Source: an uncultured bacterium
GTDB taxonomy: Bacteria > Babelota > Babeliae > Babelales > Vermiphilaceae
DNA: 64,000 bases
Assembly (NCBI GenBank): GCA_963707655.1
Contig: OY970172.1
Span: forward strand, 832,001-896,000
Direction: 5' to 3'
Made by a program: the position numbers. Numbering within the stretch: the stretch's first letter is position 1; every line of letters begins with the position of its first letter. Below, in pieces: positions 29,501-50,500 of this stretch.

Positions 29501-32500
29501 GCCTTATTAAGAAAATGCGTAAAATAAACTACCGTGATTAAGCGGATCGTTATCTATCGCAGCACGGGACAATTAACGGAATACCTATTTCCGGGTCAAC
29601 CAGCTTGATCATTTCAGTCGGCTCCGCCGTAACCATTACTTCAAGCGTGGGCCACACATGCAACTCAAAAAGATGTCCGGCGCGCGTTGTGCCGTCAGAT
29701 GCGCTGACCACCGCATGCGCATGCACTACCGGCTTGCCTTTAAAAAGAGCTATGTTGCCTATCATGGCACCCAGTTCAACCTGACCGATCGGCGAGATGT
29801 TTTTGTATAATTTTTTTTCAGGACAAACCCATCCCAAAACAATGTTGCTTGAAGCGCCAATGGCGGTAAAGCGTGCATTTTTTACCTGGTATTTTTCAGC
29901 GAATTCATGTAATCCGGCAAAAGCCTCGTCACCTTTTTTAAAAACTACGATGTAGTTTTTGCGACCACCCACATCGCTTAAAAGCTGCACCTGCATGCCC
30001 GGTGCTTTCCCCTTTTCTATCTCAAACGAGAGTGATAGATAGGTAGCGTTATCATTTTCTAAAGAATTATTTTTTGATTTAATATCGGACACAAAAATCC
30101 CCCCCAAAAACGTTAGATCATAATCACTTTATTATAATACTCAAGCATCAATAGATTGCAAGAATAACCCCCTTCTTGCGCCTTTTTTTATTGATCTTAT
30201 TCTGCTCTCGTGATAGAAAAAACTACGAGTAGTTAAAGAAAGCAGTTAAAAAAAGGGGTCGCTATGAAACAGGCATTTAAATTCTTTATCCCATTATTGT
30301 GCTGTATAGCAATTGCATCGCGCGCAGAAGCAACATACAAAAACTTTGTTATCCTCATCGCATCGTATAATAACGAACAATTCGCAAAGCACAATATTAT
30401 TTCTGCCTTGCAAAACTATCCCGAGAGCCATTACCGTATCATTTTTATTGATGATTGCTCGCAAGATAATACATTGGCTATCGCAATTAATATCCTTGAA
30501 CAACACCAAAGGCAACACCTTGTAACCATCTTTCACAATACTGAGCGCAAAGGGGCTTTATACAATCATTATTACGGCATTCATAATTACATTAAAGATG
30601 AAGAAATTGTTGTTATTCTAGACGGTGATGACCAGTTGGCTCATGCAAACGTCCTAACTTTTCTCAATGATGTCTATTCGAAAAACGATATTTGGCTCAC
30701 GTATGGGCAATTTCAACATATTGTAACTGGCCAAGTTGGCTTCAATTGCCCTATGCCCCATGAAGTGGTAGGAAGCAATAACTTTAGACGGTGGCGGCAC
30801 ATCCCCTCACACTTAAGAACTTTTTATGCAAAGCTGTACAAAAATATCAGAATAGAAGACCTGACCTTGAACGGGGATTTTTTTGAAATGTGCGCCGACA
30901 TGGCAACCATGATTCCCATGATAGAGCAGGCGCGCGATCACTTTAGATTTATTCCGCAAATATTGTATCTCTATAACGACAACAACCCAATCAGTGATCA
31001 CTTCAAAAGTAAGACGTTACAAAGAGAAATAGATCTTTATGTGCGCTCAAGGCAGCCCTATAAACCGCTTGAAAAACTTTTTTAATATTCGTTCTGGACA
31101 CGCGCCGCTTTGAAAGTTGACTGCTCCCACGGTCAACGCCCTGGACCAAAAACTACTCTTGCTGTTTGTTAACGCGATGAGATACAATAAATAATCATAG
31201 TGATGTAAGTTTTAAGGGGGGAGAAGTCACCGTGAAGATATCTATTTTAGTCATCTTTTCTATCGCGTTTTTTCCATTCATAAAAGCTGAGCCTGAACCC
31301 GCTTATTCAGCACGCATTGATAACCCGCATCCACATGAATTCAATATTCACATTAACCACGCGATCATGCAAGACATGTCGCTCAATAATAACAACAAAA
31401 ACAATGCTGCCGGAACAAACTGCATGTGCAGCGAATTATATGGCGCCGCATTGCATGAATGCATGAACTCTCTATCAAGCGAGGATCTGAAAAAAAATTT
31501 CTTAGAGCTTAATCCTCGCTGCGTGCGAAATTATTTAAGAACTGTGGGATACTCGGGAACAGAAGATATTCTTGCCTGCTTCAGTGAGGAGGAGTGGCAA
31601 GATTGGCACAGCAAACTTCCTTCAGAAATACAAAAATGTATAGGAAAAACCAAAGAAGAGGCGAGCAAAAAAGCTCTTGCTAAAATGCACGACGAAGTCA
31701 CTGCACTCATAAGGAAAGAAATGAAACGATGGACTATATAAAAAAAATTTTTGTTTTCTTAATCGTCACGACCATAACAGCAAACAGCGAACTAAAGATT
31801 AATATATATCCCGCACTGCATTACACGCAAAATATAGATGTAAACAATACCAACCATAACAGCGCCCTCGCACAACAACCTTTACCCACCATGCAGCACA
31901 CTGCAATGCAAAGCAGTGGGGACCCTATGACAGAGCTTTTGACGCGCCGAATATCCGGCGCATGGAAAGATAACCATTTTCTGCAGCTCCTCTATTCAAA
32001 AAAATCTTTAATTTCTGCTGCCATAGGAGCCATAAGCGGCTATGCTTCACTCCTTGCCTATCTGATTACTCGCTCACGCGCGATAAAAAATAGCGATCGC
32101 TGGGATAGCTGGAAACAAGAAGTTCCTGTGGCAGCACTACATGAACTACCAATAACGCAAGTGGCCAACGTACTTCGCGATGCATTACACAAAAAATATA
32201 ACAAGGCTGAGCCACGCGAGCTTGTATCGGCACTCGCCGATATTGAAGCAGAAAAAAACCAACTGGAGCGCCTTATTTTTTACTCTTCTTTGATAAAAAC
32301 ATGCAAACTGAGCTTATTGTTTTGGTACCGAGACTCAGTGGAGGAGCTCGCAAAAAACAAACTCAAGCGACTGGAATTCATCAGAGAGTTTCTTATAACC
32401 CATATGGTAAAGATTGTTGAAGGACAACCGTCTGACGCACTGGCCAATGCTGCGTAAAAACATGTATCTTGCCGCGTTTTATACACATCTAGTGTGTGCT

Positions 32501-47500: not shown

Positions 47501-50500
47501 GCAATTCAGGCTCAAAGATAGGCATTTCTCCACGCTGCAGCTGTGCAATCTTTGCCGCATCAATATCAGCGCAATAGACAGTATGGCCAAGATCAGCCAG
47601 ACAAGCGCCCAAAACAAGACCAACGTAACCCGTTCCTATAACCGCAACATGCTGCTTGTCATCTGCGTGCAGAAAAAACGAGCAAACAAGCAATAGGGCT
47701 ACGATTAATATTCTCTTCTTCATAACTACTGCTTCTCACTTCTCTTGTACTACTCTCTATTTTTTATTGATTGCCCACGTTTTTACGCTTGGCTCAGAGT
47801 TCAAAATCTTTGTACATCAAGCTCGGCTGTACACCGCGATTATCCTGATATTTGTTGCTCGCATAATGAATGTAATCACCTTCTATGGTGTGGTAGAAAA
47901 TCTGACACAATTCAACTTCAGGATAAATTTTTATTGGCTGCACACAAAACATTTCAAGCGTCCAGAAGCCACTAAAACCCACGTCGCCAAAACCGGCAGT
48001 TATGTGAATAAATAAACCGAGCCGCCCGACTGATGAACGCCCTTCAAGCATGGGTACACACGCAAGTGTCTTGGTGTACTCGATAGTGCGACCCAAATAC
48101 AAAACACCGGGCTGAAGCAGCATGCCTTCTTTGGGAATCTCTATTTTTCTCACTTCATTCTTCTTTTTCATATCAAGAACTGAATCTTCATAGACAAGCA
48201 ATTCATTATGCAGTCTGAGATTGTAAGAATTAGGACCAAGCTGCTTCTCATTAAAGGGCTCAATAAGAATATCTGAGCCAAGCCTGCGTTTAATTTCTTT
48301 GCCAGAAAGAATCATAATGCCTCCAGAACATAATCACATATCAAGTTGTAAGATTGTCGCAACGTGCTAGAATGGAAAATATCAGATTTTTATAAAAAAG
48401 TAACATTCACTTACAATGAAAAAAAATCATGAGGTATGAAGAGCATGATCGAACACAATCAGACAAAAAGTCCGCTGCTTAACCCAATCATAGATCAAAT
48501 CAAACAAGAGAGCGTACGCTTTCAAAAACTTACCGGCGAAGTTGGCAAGGTTGTTGTTGGGCAAGAAGAAACGTTACATTTCATTCTCATTGCCATTTTA
48601 TGCAACGGCCACATTCTTCTTGAAGGAGTTCCCGGCGTTGCAAAAACAACTATGATTAAAGCGATGACGCGCGCATTGGGATTAAAATTCAATCGAATTC
48701 AATTCACTCCTGATTTACTGCCGGCAGACTTGATCGGAACACTGATATATAATCCAAAAACACTTGATTTTGAAACAAAACAAGGTCCCATTTTTGCAAA
48801 TCTTATTCTTGCCGATGAAATCAATCGTGCTCCAGCCAAGGTGCAATCAGCACTACTTGAATCAATGCAAGAGCAACAAGTTACTATCGGATCAAGCACG
48901 TTCTCTCTGGACAGACCTTTTTTGGTTTTTGCAACACAAAACCCCATTGAACAAGAAGGAACGTATCGTTTGCCCGAGGCGCAAGTTGACCGTTTTATGT
49001 TTAAACTCTTGGTAAAATATCCCAGCTTTCAGCAAGAAAAAGCCATTGTACAGCGCCAATTGCACGAACCAACAATTTATCCCATACTCACCAAAGATGA
49101 CATACATGCCGCTCAAGCATTGGTGAACTCTGTTCATGTTGATGAAAAAATTAGCGACTATATTTTACATATTATTTTTGCAACGCGAGAGCCGGAAAAA
49201 TACAAGCTCAAGGAATTAAAGCCATTTATTCAGCATGGGGTTTCTCCTCGGGCAAGCTTGGCCATGCATCAGGCCGCACGCGCACAAGCATTCTTGAAAC
49301 AGCGCCATTTCGTTATTCCCGATGACGTAAAAGAAGTTGCTTATAACACCCTTGCCCATCGCGTGTTGTTAACGTATGCAGCAGAGGCGGAAGAAGTAAC
49401 GCCGCACGCCCTTATTTCAAAAATATTAAATGCTGTGCCAACCCCATAATACGTATCAATGGAATCATTCGAGTTGATTATGAAACAACGCGATCAAAGC
49501 AGGCTTGACAAAATTCCAATAAGATGGGTATTGTGTGAAATAAATTCAACAAAAAAGGAAAAATAATAATGAGACATCCAGTATGGATTTTAAACAGCGC
49601 GCTCCTTTTTTTGTTTATTATCGCCGCTGGTTTTATTTTTTTTTCATGGCAAAGACCCCCTGAGCGAGAAGACATTGAGCCTGAATTGGTAGTACAGCAA
49701 GTGCGCCGCAACCTTCCTCGCGCCAATATAGAAAAAATTTATGAAAATGATCTTTTTGGAACGTACCATGCAGCGATCGCTCCAGAACAAGCGGAGTCAG
49801 AAATGCTCATGCCGGAAGCGCCTGCGCCCGCTCCCATTAAAGCTCCTGAAAAACAAACGGTACAATTTTTGGATCCTTTGGCGGTCACTCTTAAAGGGAT
49901 CATGACTTTTTCCGGTAATGATTCAAAAAATAGAGCAGTACTCGAGGACAATGCCACAAAAGACGAACGCCTTTATAAAGTTGGGGACAAAATAGAAGAT
50001 GCTCAGCTTATACGAATATTCAGTAACAAGATAATGTTCATCCGCTCTAACGGGCAACAAGAAGTGCTTTATCTGCGGGAAAAAGATGCCTTGACCGATC
50101 CAAGCTATATGGGTGTTTATGGCTGGGCCGACGTGATAGAGCGGGTCAATGAAAGCCTTTTTGCAGTAAATCCTGAACTGTTTATTACGCGCGTGCAAAA
50201 TCTTGGCCAGTTCATTGATATGTTGGATCTCACTACTGCATACAAAAAAGGTGATAGCGCCGGCTGCCGTATTGGTCACCTAGAGGATAATTCACTGGGG
50301 AACGCTCTTGGGTTGCAGCAGGGAGACATCATCATAAGCGTTAATGATATACCTGCAACTACCACTTCTCACCGCTTTAAAATTTATAAAGCGTTGGTAT
50401 CTCACGATACACATGATACTATTAAGGTTGTTTTAAGAAGAAACAACATGCATTTAAATATAGAATACAAACTAGAAAAAATAAAAAAACGAGATCATGC

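Follow-up and report, generated by a model that had tools for sequence, protein, structure and literature searches.

Eighteen consecutive genes in a 64,000-nucleotide stretch of DNA (the window), from a 1.09-Mb genome of 41% GC whose closest named relatives are Dependentiae/Babeliales, may form a glycan-building pathway of Sec-exported enzymes with cleavable signals, working in the periplasm and fed by the host (Table 1); we give this reading a probability of about 45%. As signals stand on the whole sugar-building pathway, normally cytoplasmic enzymes included, the organism, apparently a small parasitic bacterium of protists, probably makes fucose-rich chains outside its own cytoplasm with host supplies. 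The analysis shows sequence features, how well they are conserved, the families of the enzymes, and that a search for the customary export machinery found none; export and signal cleavage, as well as compartment, substrates, acceptor and product, are inferred. On the best reading, the pathway operates outside the cytoplasm and draws on nucleotide sugars of the host. The initial annotation had placed 18 ORFs at 30264-47723, all of which were found again, and had proposed an extracytoplasmic pathway, a view that appears supported, since each computational test able to refute it failed to do so. No earlier description of an export-tagged fucose pathway was found in the literature searched.

The locus encodes four nucleotide-sugar enzymes, about nine glycosyltransferases (two GT2, one GT6, two NodZ-like, one GT11-like, one new GT-A fold, one new GT-B fold and one candidate) and two or three methyltransferases. 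These enzymes look active, judging by a GMD above its equivalog cut-off, the sole GMD of the genome, and by readable catalytic motifs (GGSCFPKD in UGDH, GGPCFPRD at the active site of UGDH-s).

Table 1. Genes of the locus and its flanks, with family matches and outcome of the signal test (window positions)
Position	Strand	Length (aa)	Assignment	Family match and N-terminus
28003-29073			DAO	flanking; no signal N-terminus
29107-29541			RF-1 domain	flanking; no signal N-terminus
29550-30107			PCC	flanking; no signal N-terminus
30264-31085	+	273	GT2-family glycosyltransferase, signal peptide	PF00535 E 7.4e-13, domain from residue 30; passes
31232-31741	+	169	small protein of no known family, signal peptide	none in Pfam or NCBIfam; passes
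31729-32457	+	242	protein of no known family, signal peptide	none in family searches; one further predicted (hydrophobic) membrane segment beyond signal; passes
32414-32935	+	173	borderline ORF, putative gene, hydrophobic N-terminus	none in family searches; fails
33061-33885	+	274	methyltransferase-like protein, signal peptide	FtsJ E 1.9e-4, Methyltransf_24 E 2.7e-4, both under Pfam cut-offs; passes
33931-35091	+	386	GT-B-fold glycosyltransferase, unnamed Dependentiae-rich family, signal peptide	
35077-36099	-	340	NodZ/GT23-like fucosyltransferase, signal peptide	PF05830 E 1.9e-11, 43.9 bits (cut-off 28.3); passes
36168-37229	+	353 (ORF)	probable glycosyltransferase, signal peptide	likely start 36228; passes from Met21
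37260-38444	+	394	short nucleotide-sugar 6-dehydrogenase (UGDH-s), signal peptide	PF03721 + PF00984, PF03720 not matched in Pfam search; TIGR03026 239.4 bits (cut-off 189.8); domain from residue 27
38425-39345	-	306	class I SAM methyltransferase, signal peptide	likely start 39330; Methyltransf_11 E 4.9e-19, domain from residue 91; passes
39545-40564	+	339	second NodZ/GT23-like fucosyltransferase, hydrophobic N-terminus	PF05830 E 1.2e-9, 38.0 bits (cut-off 28.3); passes
40809-41648	-	279	GT11-like, candidate alpha-1,2-fucosyltransferase, borderline N-terminus	
41661-42440	-	259 (ORF)	GT6 (ABO-type) glycosyltransferase, signal peptide	likely start 42404; PF03414 E 1.9e-47, 162.1 bits; NF041524 200.7 bits, under cut-off 250; passes from Met13
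42406-43572	-	388	GDP-mannose 4,6-dehydratase (GMD), signal peptide	TIGR01472 574.8 bits (cut-off 415); PF16363 positions 1-332 at residues 35-366
43578-44579	-	333	GDP-L-fucose synthase (GFS), signal peptide	NF047922 471.9 bits, slightly below cut-off 500; Epimerase domain from residue 27
44594-45415	-	273	GT2-family glycosyltransferase, signal peptide	PF00535 E 5.5e-18, domain from residue 29
45423-46313	-	296	GT-A-fold glycosyltransferase, unnamed Dependentiae family, signal peptide	
46344-47723	-	459	UDP-glucose 6-dehydrogenase-type enzyme (UGDH), signal peptide	PF03721, PF00984, PF03720; TIGR03026 465.2 bits (cut-off 189.8); domain from residue 25
47794-48315			dCTP deaminase	flanking; no signal N-terminus
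48436-49449			MoxR	flanking; no signal N-terminus

The GT-B-fold protein has 955 homologues at E<=1e-5, those that carry a name coming from Dependentiae and some being fusions with SAM methyltransferases; its AF2 model has a mean pLDDT of 89.8, and its top Foldseek PDB matches (3mbo, 7bov, 1nlm) are all GT-B glycosyltransferases (E 1e-7 to 1e-5, TM 0.4-0.5). For the GT-A-fold protein (831 homologues at E<=1e-5; D114 and D115 invariant; AF2 mean pLDDT 90.3) the top matches are SpsA, GnT-I and TarP (E 5e-8 to 2e-7, TM 0.45-0.5). It also aligns weakly (23%, E 1e-3) with the C-terminal half of a 496-aa signal-bearing GT2 fusion encoded at genome positions 100707-102197, whose N-terminal half shares 36% identity (E 3e-58) with the GT2 at 44594-45415. 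Six of the 42 aligned members of the GT11-like family (1724 representatives at E<=1e-3) match Pfam Glyco_transf_11 (best E 5.1e-6), a domain that the protein itself does not match in Pfam. The ORF at 36168-37229 has no Pfam family; its neighbours in a protein atlas are phage clusters named 'glycosyltransferase family protein' (score 0.98), with Glyco_trans_1_2 on 12% of one cluster, and the assignment drawn from them is a lead only.

How far do the N-termini of these proteins resemble Sec signals? In the crude test applied, a protein passed if its n-region was net positive and if an uncharged stretch of 10 aa or more began within 15 residues, the best 10-aa window in that stretch averaging 2.0 or higher in Kyte-Doolittle hydropathy; any start in the first 30 codons was permitted, equally for every gene. 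Sixteen of the 18 proteins pass. The initial annotation had given all 18 a signal-like N-terminus, and the remaining two are borderline failures: 32414-32935 has an n-region without positive charge (12-aa hydrophobic stretch counted from Met17), and the GT11-like protein, whose nearest homologues have clean signal peptides, carries one Asp within its hydrophobic stretch. The five flanking genes have no such N-terminus, as had been claimed. None of 19 window proteins of cytoplasmic-type Pfam families was flagged, and 5 of 90 flagged proteins outside the window were false positives, with a Rossmann-type strand at residue 1-22. The locus is the densest run of 18 genes in the genome for signal-positive ORFs, but clustering alone is only mildly unusual because 433 of the genome's 1027 ORFs (42%) also pass; 16 of 18 was reached in 424 of 20000 shuffles, so the run itself is only modestly beyond chance. 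The unusual aspect is the identity of the tagged proteins and the conservation of the tag, not the length of the run.

The n-region is positive in 16 of the 18 proteins, the hydrophobic core measures 9-15 aa in the 14 where it is separable, and sites obeying the -3/-1 rule lie downstream of it in 15 of 18. Cores of 9-15 aa are also found in the window's secretins, GH3 and S49 peptidase, and the same N-terminal pattern occurs on proteins that are certain to be exported (secretins, BamA, PBP, SurA, ZnuA). Cleavable Sec-type signal peptides would move the proteins out of the bacterial cytoplasm. An improbable alternative is that the segments are uncleaved or partly used membrane tethers that keep the enzymes on the cytoplasmic side of the inner membrane. 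The pathway would then be a conventional one, its nucleotide sugars imported or made by the cell and its carrier and flippase as yet unrecognised. The likeness to exported proteins speaks against such tethers, the charge on the N-terminal side predicts an N-in, C-out orientation, and the cores are too short for a stable anchor, the membrane anchors of the window being 16-21 aa long.

The Pfam domains of GMD, GFS, both dehydrogenases and both GT2 enzymes begin at residues 25 to 35, in agreement with the extension lengths of the initial annotation, which had cautioned that the starts were those of the gene caller. It is very improbable that these starts were called too far upstream and that the real proteins begin at the catalytic domain. 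An in-frame ATG at codon 21 would give GFS a normal N-terminus, one GT2 (GT2b) has a TTG at codon 20, and the database copy of GMD begins 7 residues later. However, most locus genes have no usable start codon beyond the hydrophobic segment, and UGDH, UGDH-s, GMD and GT2a have no in-frame start at all between it and the catalytic domain (UGDH, starts at residues 1, 11 and 38 only; UGDH-s, none between residues 1 and 35; GMD, only 1, 8 and 10 before residue 47, all within the hydrophobic segment). Furthermore, the sole upstream start precedes the signal in several relatives (e.g., L033, L044, L052, L059, L027, L030). SD-like motifs stand upstream of the signal-peptide starts: AGGGG lies 7-11 nt before the ATG of the GT2 at 30264-31085, a GGGGGGAG stretch precedes the GTG start of 31232-31741, and AGGA and AGGAAGA (immediately) precede the first and second NodZ-like genes. 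In GFS, where the signal peptide is fused immediately upstream of the ancestral start Met, AAGGA precedes the first ATG and no SD-like motif the internal one; across relatives such motifs occur at 17/21 signal-peptide starts vs 0/27 ancestral internal ATGs. Since SD-like sites lie upstream and later usable starts are missing from most genes, the extensions are, on this sequence evidence, real; together with a hydrophobic character kept across Dependentiae despite sequence divergence, this largely refutes miscalled starts.

When the 30 best-scoring loci of Dependentiae genomes are taken for each query, 29/29 UGDH, 25/29 GMD and 22/29 GFS carry the extension, and the ManC of relatives bears it in 18 of 22 scored frames (8 further loci unscored). 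The earlier count of GMD homologues was reproduced, with 19 of the first 29 extended, one cut and nine without. Placing the signal label on the GMD tree takes 6 changes, vs a shuffled mean of 25 (0/500 shuffles as low). Of the GT-A-fold homologues with the motif found, 84 of 100 pass the signal test; in 64 of 97 such GT11-like representatives the motif lies at most 20 residues from the start, so those 64 have no extension. Related loci in three other genera hold 18/21, 15/17 and 16/18 signal-positive ORFs, and related loci also carry a signal-bearing ManC and a UDP-GlcNAc 2-epimerase/dehydrogenase fusion. In relative G202, a signal-less GMD sits between signal-bearing ManC and GFS within the export-tagged operon, which counts against the extracytoplasmic reading and would suit tethered enzymes. 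The ancestral Met codon, kept in 25-27 of 29 GFS genes, also fits tethering and makes a second, cytoplasmic isoform possible, but the missing SD-like site before it, at all 27 loci, argues otherwise.

Marker genes indicate 88.6% completeness, so gene absences in this genome fall short of proof; within it, none of the means of the usual route, in which a glycan is assembled in the cytoplasm and then exported, is apparent. LpxC, Wzy_C/WaaL and Bac_transf (the WbaP-type initiating transferase) were not found in it, nor was a WecA-type initiating transferase, the single PF00953 copy being MraY-type; that no initiating transferase or ligase was found speaks against tethered enzymes. According to published work, most LPS genes are missing from Babeliales (PMC4776705), and in Chromulinavorax no LPS genes were seen (PMC6561590). 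On the side of tethering, one sub-threshold MOP-family match and two polytopic proteins of no family are possible flippases, and three TLC/NTT nucleotide transporters could in principle import nucleotide sugars. The GalU-like protein points the same way: the genome's only PF00483 protein (UDP-glucose pyrophosphorylase-like), it has no signal, so that UDP-glucose is apparently a cytoplasmic product although both dehydrogenases that would use it are export-tagged, which counts against the extracytoplasmic reading. No ManC was found in this genome, which fits the use of host GDP-mannose. The presence of the three TLC/NTT genes also counts in favour of supply by the host.

Canonical signal peptides also occur in this genome on proteins whose only sensible place of action is the cytosol or nucleus of a eukaryote. 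Outside the window, 176 signal-class proteins are at least 200 aa long; the 90 of them that were scanned for families include 5 ankyrin, 4 WD40, 3 C2H2 zinc-finger, 2 AAA+ ATPase, 2 GNAT and 1 DnaJ proteins, and the ankyrin, WD40, zinc-finger and AAA+ cases point beyond the periplasm. It is possible, if somewhat unlikely, that Sec export is followed by exit through a type II secretion system (two secretins) or outer-membrane vesicles, and that the enzymes act in the host cytosol, diverting host GDP-mannose and UDP-glucose as a multi-enzyme effector set that glycosylates host proteins or the bacterium's outer face. Every cofactor is certain there, and ManC requires GTP and mannose-1-phosphate, so the signal-bearing ManC of relatives fits the cytosol better than the periplasm. 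On the other hand, a set of nine transferases plus several methyltransferases points to a complex glycan, whereas known effector glycosyltransferases typically transfer a single sugar; intermediates of the pathway would become dilute in the host cytosol, and several hundred type II substrates would be needed, for which we know of no precedent. One relative's locus holds GT32 proteins with weak TcdA/TcdB catalytic-domain matches. Two T2SSF genes, two secretins and T2SSE genes are present in the genome, and GspC-like, PilM and two secretin genes are found downstream of the locus, at a distance of 2-10 kb, but one T2SSE-like gene contains in-frame stops, and type II genes do not adjoin the syntenic loci of the three relatives examined, so the adjacency here may be chance. 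In published accounts, the core gene set of the phylum includes a type II system with two copies of gspD (PMC4776705), and Chromulinavorax has predicted signal peptides on 44% of its CDS and on 78% of its ankyrin proteins, with vesicles observed (PMC6561590).

In the preferred periplasmic pathway, unfolded precursors would pass through SecYEG and lose their signals to signal peptidase I (two copies in the genome), and the mature enzymes would fold and bind NAD(P) in the periplasm of an intracellular, host-embedded bacterium. Sec exports chains unfolded; GMD must therefore acquire its bound NADP+ after export, which counts against this reading. Host GDP-mannose, UDP-glucose, NAD+, NADPH and SAM would have to cross the outer membrane, the same passage that host nucleotides need to reach the inner-membrane TLC/NTT transporters; nucleotide sugars, NADPH and SAM are not normally expected in a periplasm, a further point against. 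GMD and GFS would then yield GDP-fucose and the two dehydrogenases UDP-uronic acid(s), from which the soluble transferases and methyltransferases would assemble glycans that contain fucose and uronic acid and are methylated in part. Assembly would take place directly on envelope proteins or lipids that have themselves been exported, and would involve neither a lipid carrier nor a flippase or ligase. Some of the enzymes may travel further, via the type II secretion system or vesicles. The product is likely a surface coat of a bacterium in which the LPS-synthesis marker LpxC was not found, and the neighbouring GT11-like and GT6 genes suggest that it includes a blood-group-like Gal(NAc)-alpha-1,3-(Fuc-alpha-1,2)-Gal motif.

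The window covers positions 832001-896000 of a single contig of 1,091,075 bp (41.3% GC), and the nearest named homologues of its GDP-mannose 4,6-dehydratase (GMD) and of two locus-specific families belong to 'Candidatus Dependentiae' or 'Babeliales'; the genome falls within a set of 261 genomes of one phylum. The locus holds 18 ORFs, nine per strand, between 30264 and 47723. Pfam and NCBIfam identify in it two GT2 transferases, two NodZ/GT23-like fucosyltransferases, one GT6 enzyme, GMD, GDP-L-fucose synthase (GFS) and two nucleotide-sugar dehydrogenases (UGDH and the shorter UGDH-s), together with one clear and one weak match to class I methyltransferases. 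Seven ORFs have no family, and a search of these against Pfam at E values up to 5 returned nothing credible; four are placed further by homologues, predicted model or protein atlas, and three small ones are still without explanation. GC drops to 0.37-0.38 at 36000-42000, mid-locus, against 0.41 for the genome. Of the sequencing runs listed as containing the locus none is RNA; five DNA runs contain small shares of it.

Features discussed, with positions in the window unless marked C1 (the contig) or with an L-number (our handle for a locus; G- and P-numbers denote genomes and homologue proteins)
Feature	Position	Evidence
GMD	42406-43572	TIGR01472, 574.8 bits (equivalog cut-off 415 passed); GITGQDG (GxxGxxG) and YGVAK (YxxxK catalytic motif)
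GFS	43578-44579	NF047922, 471.9 bits (cut-off 500), E 1e-141, positions 2-304 of 308 aligned; adjoins gmd
GFS relatives	L116-L145
UGDH	46344-47723	TIGR03026, 465.2 bits (subfamily cut-off 189.8 passed); three Pfam domains; catalytic Cys motif
UGDH-s	37260-38444	TIGR03026, 239.4 bits (cut-off 189.8 passed); PF03720 not matched
GT6		PF03414, 162.1 bits (gathering score 25 passed); NF041524, 200.7 bits, under subfamily cut-off 250
NodZ-like pair	39545-40564 (NodZ-b)	PF05830, 43.9 and 38.0 bits (gathering score 28.3 passed), C-terminal half of profile only
GT11-like ORF	40809-41648	family of 1724 representatives; PF01531 (GT11) not matched by the ORF itself, matched by 6/42 aligned homologues (best E 5.1e-6)
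Candidate GT-A transferase	45423-46313	family of 831 proteins; predicted model (pLDDT 90.3) of GT-A glycosyltransferase fold; invariant DD pair
Candidate GT-B transferase	33931-35091	family of 955 proteins, some fused to methyltransferases; predicted model (pLDDT 89.8) of GT-B fold
Atlas lead	36168-37229	resembles phage glycosyltransferase clusters of the protein atlas (lead only)
Small ORFs without explanation	31232; 31729; 32414
Type II secretion genes	49569-57981	GspC-like protein, secretin, PilM, small anchored protein, second secretin
GNAT acetyltransferase	59419-60000
Tandem GT2 fusions	C1:100707-102197 and 102216-103772 (C1:100707-103772; L066:707-3772)	signal-bearing, about 500 aa each; GT2 plus C-terminal domain
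Polytopic membrane proteins	C1:394707-396047; C1:397950-399404	taken as g00412 and g00414; no Pfam family at E<=0.01
T2SSE, intact	C1:722934-724079
T2SSE, interrupted	C1:764698-765845	pieces, with in-frame TGA, TAG and TAA
Signal-bearing eukaryote-type proteins (examples)	L079:1994-4929; L086:1679-5337; L084:13103-15583
Signal-less GMD of genome G202	L147:7225-8325

The initial annotation had described a signal-like N-terminus on every protein of the locus and none on the flanking genes. This pattern holds under a crude signal test (positive n-region and an uncharged stretch of at least 10 aa near the start, with a mean Kyte-Doolittle value of at least 2.0 over the best 10 aa), which 16/18 locus proteins pass and all five immediately flanking genes fail. 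Its specificity is reasonable: it flags 0/19 window proteins with cytoplasmic-type families, and of 90 flagged proteins elsewhere, 5 are cytoplasmic enzymes in which the first strand of the Rossmann fold resembles a hydrophobic core. Because of these false positives it was rejected as a general classifier, and cross-genome counts need a hydrophobic window upstream of the conserved first strand. Within the locus such confusion does not arise, since the hydrophobic segments sit 24-34 residues upstream of profile position 1-3 of the catalytic domains. How much does the run itself say? Genome-wide, 433 of 1027 ORFs (42%) pass the same test. The locus is the densest 18-gene window of the genome, but 424 of 20000 shuffles also reach 16/18; by itself the run carries little statistical weight, so the case is not built on clustering. 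The finding rests on which proteins bear the tag.

The n-region is net positive in 16/18 proteins and has zero net charge in ORF 32414 (read from Met17) and in NodZ-b, one of the NodZ-like pair, in which the hydrophobic run was taken to begin at residue 1, leaving no n-region to score. The hydrophobic core measures 9-15 aa in 14 of the 18 and merges with the first beta-strand in the other four. Exported controls in the same window (secretins, GH3, S49 peptidase) also have cores of 9-15 aa, whereas membrane anchors span 16-21 aa; set beside these lengths, membrane tethers are a much less likely reading of the locus segments. Putative cleavage sites, called by match to the -3/-1 rule, lie at most 10 residues past the core in 15/18. 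Neither a Tat RR pair before the core nor an L-[AS]-[GA]-C lipobox was found in the 18 N-termini, read directly. The sequence evidence says that the locus proteins would enter the Sec pathway, placing the catalytic domain outside the cytoplasm.

Are the extensions translated at all? That they are an artefact of start-codon choice is much less likely, and this explanation was rejected for most genes: SD-like AGGA/GGAG motifs precede many long-form starts by 6-12 nt, and in UGDH, UGDH-s, GMD and GT2a (one of the two GT2 genes) no in-frame start lies between the hydrophobic segment and the catalytic domain. In GFS the ancestral start Met stands six residues ahead of the IYVAGH strand and survives here and in 25-27 of 29 relatives. 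Its signal was added exactly before this old start codon, which shows evolutionary re-targeting of cytoplasmic enzymes, and an SD-like motif accompanies 17/21 signal-peptide starts versus 0/27 internal ATGs. In most relatives the ancestral Met lies right after the predicted cleavage region and its SD-like site is gone. The retained Met is either a relic of signal addition or a rarely used second start.

Among the 30 best-scoring loci per query in Dependentiae genomes, a sample biased to the closest relatives of the query, a signal-like extension is present in 29/29 UGDH, 25/29 GMD and 22/29 GFS reading frames, several of the GFS failures being short of positive charge only. Across these relatives the extensions diverge freely in sequence and retain their character. 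On a quick maximum-likelihood GMD tree the signal label requires 6 changes, compared with 25 on average after shuffling (0/500 shuffles as low), and in the main group, with moderate support (SH-aLRT 91, quick search), 30 of the 33 rows bear a signal. In three syntenic loci of other genera, 18/21, 15/17 and 16/18 ORFs are signal-positive; these loci also encode extended forms of GT32-type transferases, of a UDP-GlcNAc 2-epimerase/dehydrogenase fusion and of ManC. ManC occurs at E<=1e-40 in 32/80 family genomes and is extended in 18/22 scored frames, 8 of the 30 loci being unscored where the motif was not matched. In genome G202 a GMD without a signal lies between ManC and GFS, which are both signal-bearing, and a second GMD, with a signal, comes next; on the quick tree the copy without a signal falls outside the main signal-bearing clade.

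The locus enzymes are ordinary members of known families and their targeting is the new part. Both dehydrogenases score below the UDP-glucose equivalog cut-offs (670-757 bits). A PDB sequence search gave no match for 45423-46313 or 40809-41648; with family profiles, that of 33931-35091 matched nothing in the PDB and that of 40809-41648 only weak, irrelevant UPF0335 entries.

The only PF00483 protein of the genome is GalU-like and without a signal, and ManC was not found here at E<=1e-40. No match was obtained in the genome for the Wzy_C/WaaL polymerase/ligase (PF04932), the Bac_transf, WbaP-type initiating transferase (PF02397) or LpxC; PF00953 has one match, taken as MraY-type, with no WecA-type second. 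MurJ is present in the window, and the flippase family PF01943 gave one sub-threshold match (23.7 bits, cut-off 28.2), 460 kb from the locus. Marker genes put the completeness of the genome at 88.6%, so these absences of glycan-export genes are to be read as 'not found' and not as proven. The 23.7-bit Polysacc_synt match, from a six-frame search, falls on one of the two polytopic membrane proteins. On the secretion side, the genome has two genes each for signal peptidase I and T2SSF, three TLC/NTT nucleotide-transporter genes, and one intact and one interrupted T2SSE, the latter being a disrupted gene or the result of an indel in the assembly. Type II genes also lie 2-10 kb downstream of the locus, and their two secretins agree with the two gspD copies described as phylum core in a passage of PMC4776705. 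None lie beside the three syntenic loci examined, so this adjacency is given little weight.

The most likely reading is that the locus would form a pathway outside the cytoplasm, working on host GDP-mannose, UDP-glucose, NAD(P)(H) and SAM. It is favored because Sec entry is predicted, no conventional export route was found and there is no ManC to supply GDP-mannose. For host nucleotides to arrive at the NTT transporters they must already pass the outer membrane, so molecules of similar size could enter the periplasm of a cell embedded in its host. GMD and GFS would make GDP-fucose and the dehydrogenases a UDP-uronic acid. Exported envelope molecules would be the targets of the GT11-like/GT6 pair, both NodZ-like enzymes, the GT2/GT-A pair, the GT-B enzymes and the methyltransferases, which would decorate them. 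Alternatively, and this is the main rival, the export step is kept and the enzymes are sent on to the host cytosol. The same signal type on ankyrin, WD40, C2H2 zinc-finger, AAA+, GNAT and DnaJ proteins argues for such delivery, as does the need of a signal-bearing ManC for GTP.

Textbook bacterial glycosylation keeps nucleotide-sugar chemistry in the cytoplasm and allows only lipid-linked donors outside it, on the premise that nucleotide sugars and NAD(P)H are missing from the periplasm. The conserved export-tagged GMD, GFS and UGDH, with ManC in relatives, contradict this cytoplasm-only expectation in the Dependentiae genomes sampled. There are two ways out: either these energy parasites have a periplasm in chemical continuity with the host cytosol, or the bacteria deliver the whole pathway into their host. 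Each of the two would revise the view of envelope and host interaction in a widespread, barely cultured phylum, and would explain part of the high signal-peptide share of its proteome. It is also conceivable, though we consider it rather unlikely, that Dependentiae as a phylum assemble glycans outside the cytoplasm in a Golgi-like manner. ManC, GMD, GFS, UGDH, the UDP-GlcNAc epimerase/dehydrogenase and the glycosyltransferases would all be soluble and Sec-exported, host cytosolic metabolites would leak into the parasite's periplasm, and the LPS-less outer membrane would be coated with host-like (blood-group-type) fucosylated glycans. If true, bacterial glycosylation would have a third mode, one that needs neither a lipid carrier nor a flippase nor an oligosaccharyltransferase.

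Several known systems share parts of this arrangement. The gmd-fcl(-manC) modules of E. coli O-antigen and colanic-acid clusters encode cytoplasmic enzymes with no N-terminal extension, and their route depends on the undecaprenyl-phosphate carrier, Wzx/Wzy and WaaL. They have the same enzymes as the locus, with gmd and fcl adjacent and transferases nearby; in contrast, that carrier route (Wzx/Wzy, WaaL) was not found in this genome, and the locus GMD and GFS bear extensions. The blood-group-like loci of E. coli O86 and Bacteroides ovatus combine GT11 and GT6, again as cytoplasmic enzymes. There as here, GT11 or GT11-like and GT6 genes are adjacent and lie beside GDP-fucose synthesis genes, which by analogy may reflect the enzyme logic of the H and A/B antigens, whereas the GT11-like and GT6 proteins of the locus have N-terminal hydrophobic extensions and its GT6 carries a DAD motif in place of the NXN of Bacteroides.

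PgtA, to which the initial annotation had likened one transferase of the locus, is a cytoplasmic eukaryotic enzyme of Skp1 glycosylation in Dictyostelium and Toxoplasma and joins a GT2 beta-3-GalT to a GT74 alpha-2-FucT. In the locus a GT2 gene adjoins a second transferase of GT-A fold, and fusions in the same order occur in two signal-bearing proteins elsewhere in the genome. The GT2 domain of these tandem proteins is 36% identical to GT2b, one of the two GT2 genes of the locus, and their C-terminal domain is weakly similar to 45423-46313 (identity between free and fused forms just 23%); by this similarity they would be a fused form of the adjacent GT2/GT-A pair. The second domain of PgtA is GT74; 45423-46313, with its predicted GT-A fold and invariant DD pair, would be a candidate for such a domain. 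The two fusions adjoin a MurA-type gene without a signal. In other Dependentiae (homologues P0209, P0257 and P0330) GT-A domains of the 45423 type occur joined to GT6, and GT-B proteins of the 33931 type to SAM methyltransferases; these natural fusions suggest that the enzymes act on the same product.

Glycosyltransferases that use host nucleotide sugars outside the bacterial cytoplasm include the large clostridial toxins, Legionella Lgt/SetA and NleB/SseK, all single enzymes that place one sugar onto a host protein and travel by other delivery routes. None of them is known to bring its own donor-synthesis enzymes. The use of host nucleotide sugars outside the cytoplasm would be shared with the locus, which would add donor synthesis.

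As described in PMC4829429 and PMC9251005, the glycogen enzymes of Chlamydia trachomatis are housekeeping sugar enzymes that have gained secretion signals, as in the locus, and work outside the bacterium on a host-derived nucleotide sugar, as is proposed here. Differently from the Sec-type signal peptides of the locus, they carry type III signals and act in the inclusion lumen; their product is a storage polymer and not a glycoconjugate, and the set described there includes neither nucleotide-sugar interconversion enzymes nor diverse glycosyltransferases (PMC4829429; PMC9251005). Within the phylum itself there is the secretome of Dependentiae, with 44% signal-bearing proteins in Chromulinavorax destructans (PMC6561590, in part) against 42% here by the crude test. 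Passages of PMC6561590 and PMC4776705 describe ankyrin proteins with signals, Sec plus type II secretion with two secretins and a lack of LPS genes, all of which this genome parallels. They name proteases, nucleases, hydrolases and ankyrin proteins, and sugar enzymes go unmentioned in these passages, although supplementary tables could list such genes (PMC6561590; PMC4776705). None of these three closest precedents (the Dependentiae secretome as covered in these passages, the Chlamydia enzymes and the toxins) is known to join donor synthesis and a transferase set under Sec signals. Among the papers searched, none links Dependentiae, TM6 or Babela with signal-bearing nucleotide-sugar enzymes or glycosyltransferases, and there was no relevant paper on a GDP-mannose dehydratase with a signal peptide in the periplasm.

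Canonical signal peptides occur genome-wide on eukaryote-type proteins; the Pfam scan of signal-class proteins took in 90 of 176. Among the signal-bearing proteins are a tandem array of three C2H2 zinc-finger proteins whose N-termini are nearly identical, a tandem pair of WD40 proteins, a triple-AAA ATPase, GNATs, a DnaJ protein and an Ntox17-domain protein. The GNAT acetyltransferase of the window has an 18-residue N-terminal anchor and not a cleavable-looking signal; by the positive-inside rule, its acetyl-CoA-dependent domain would face outward.
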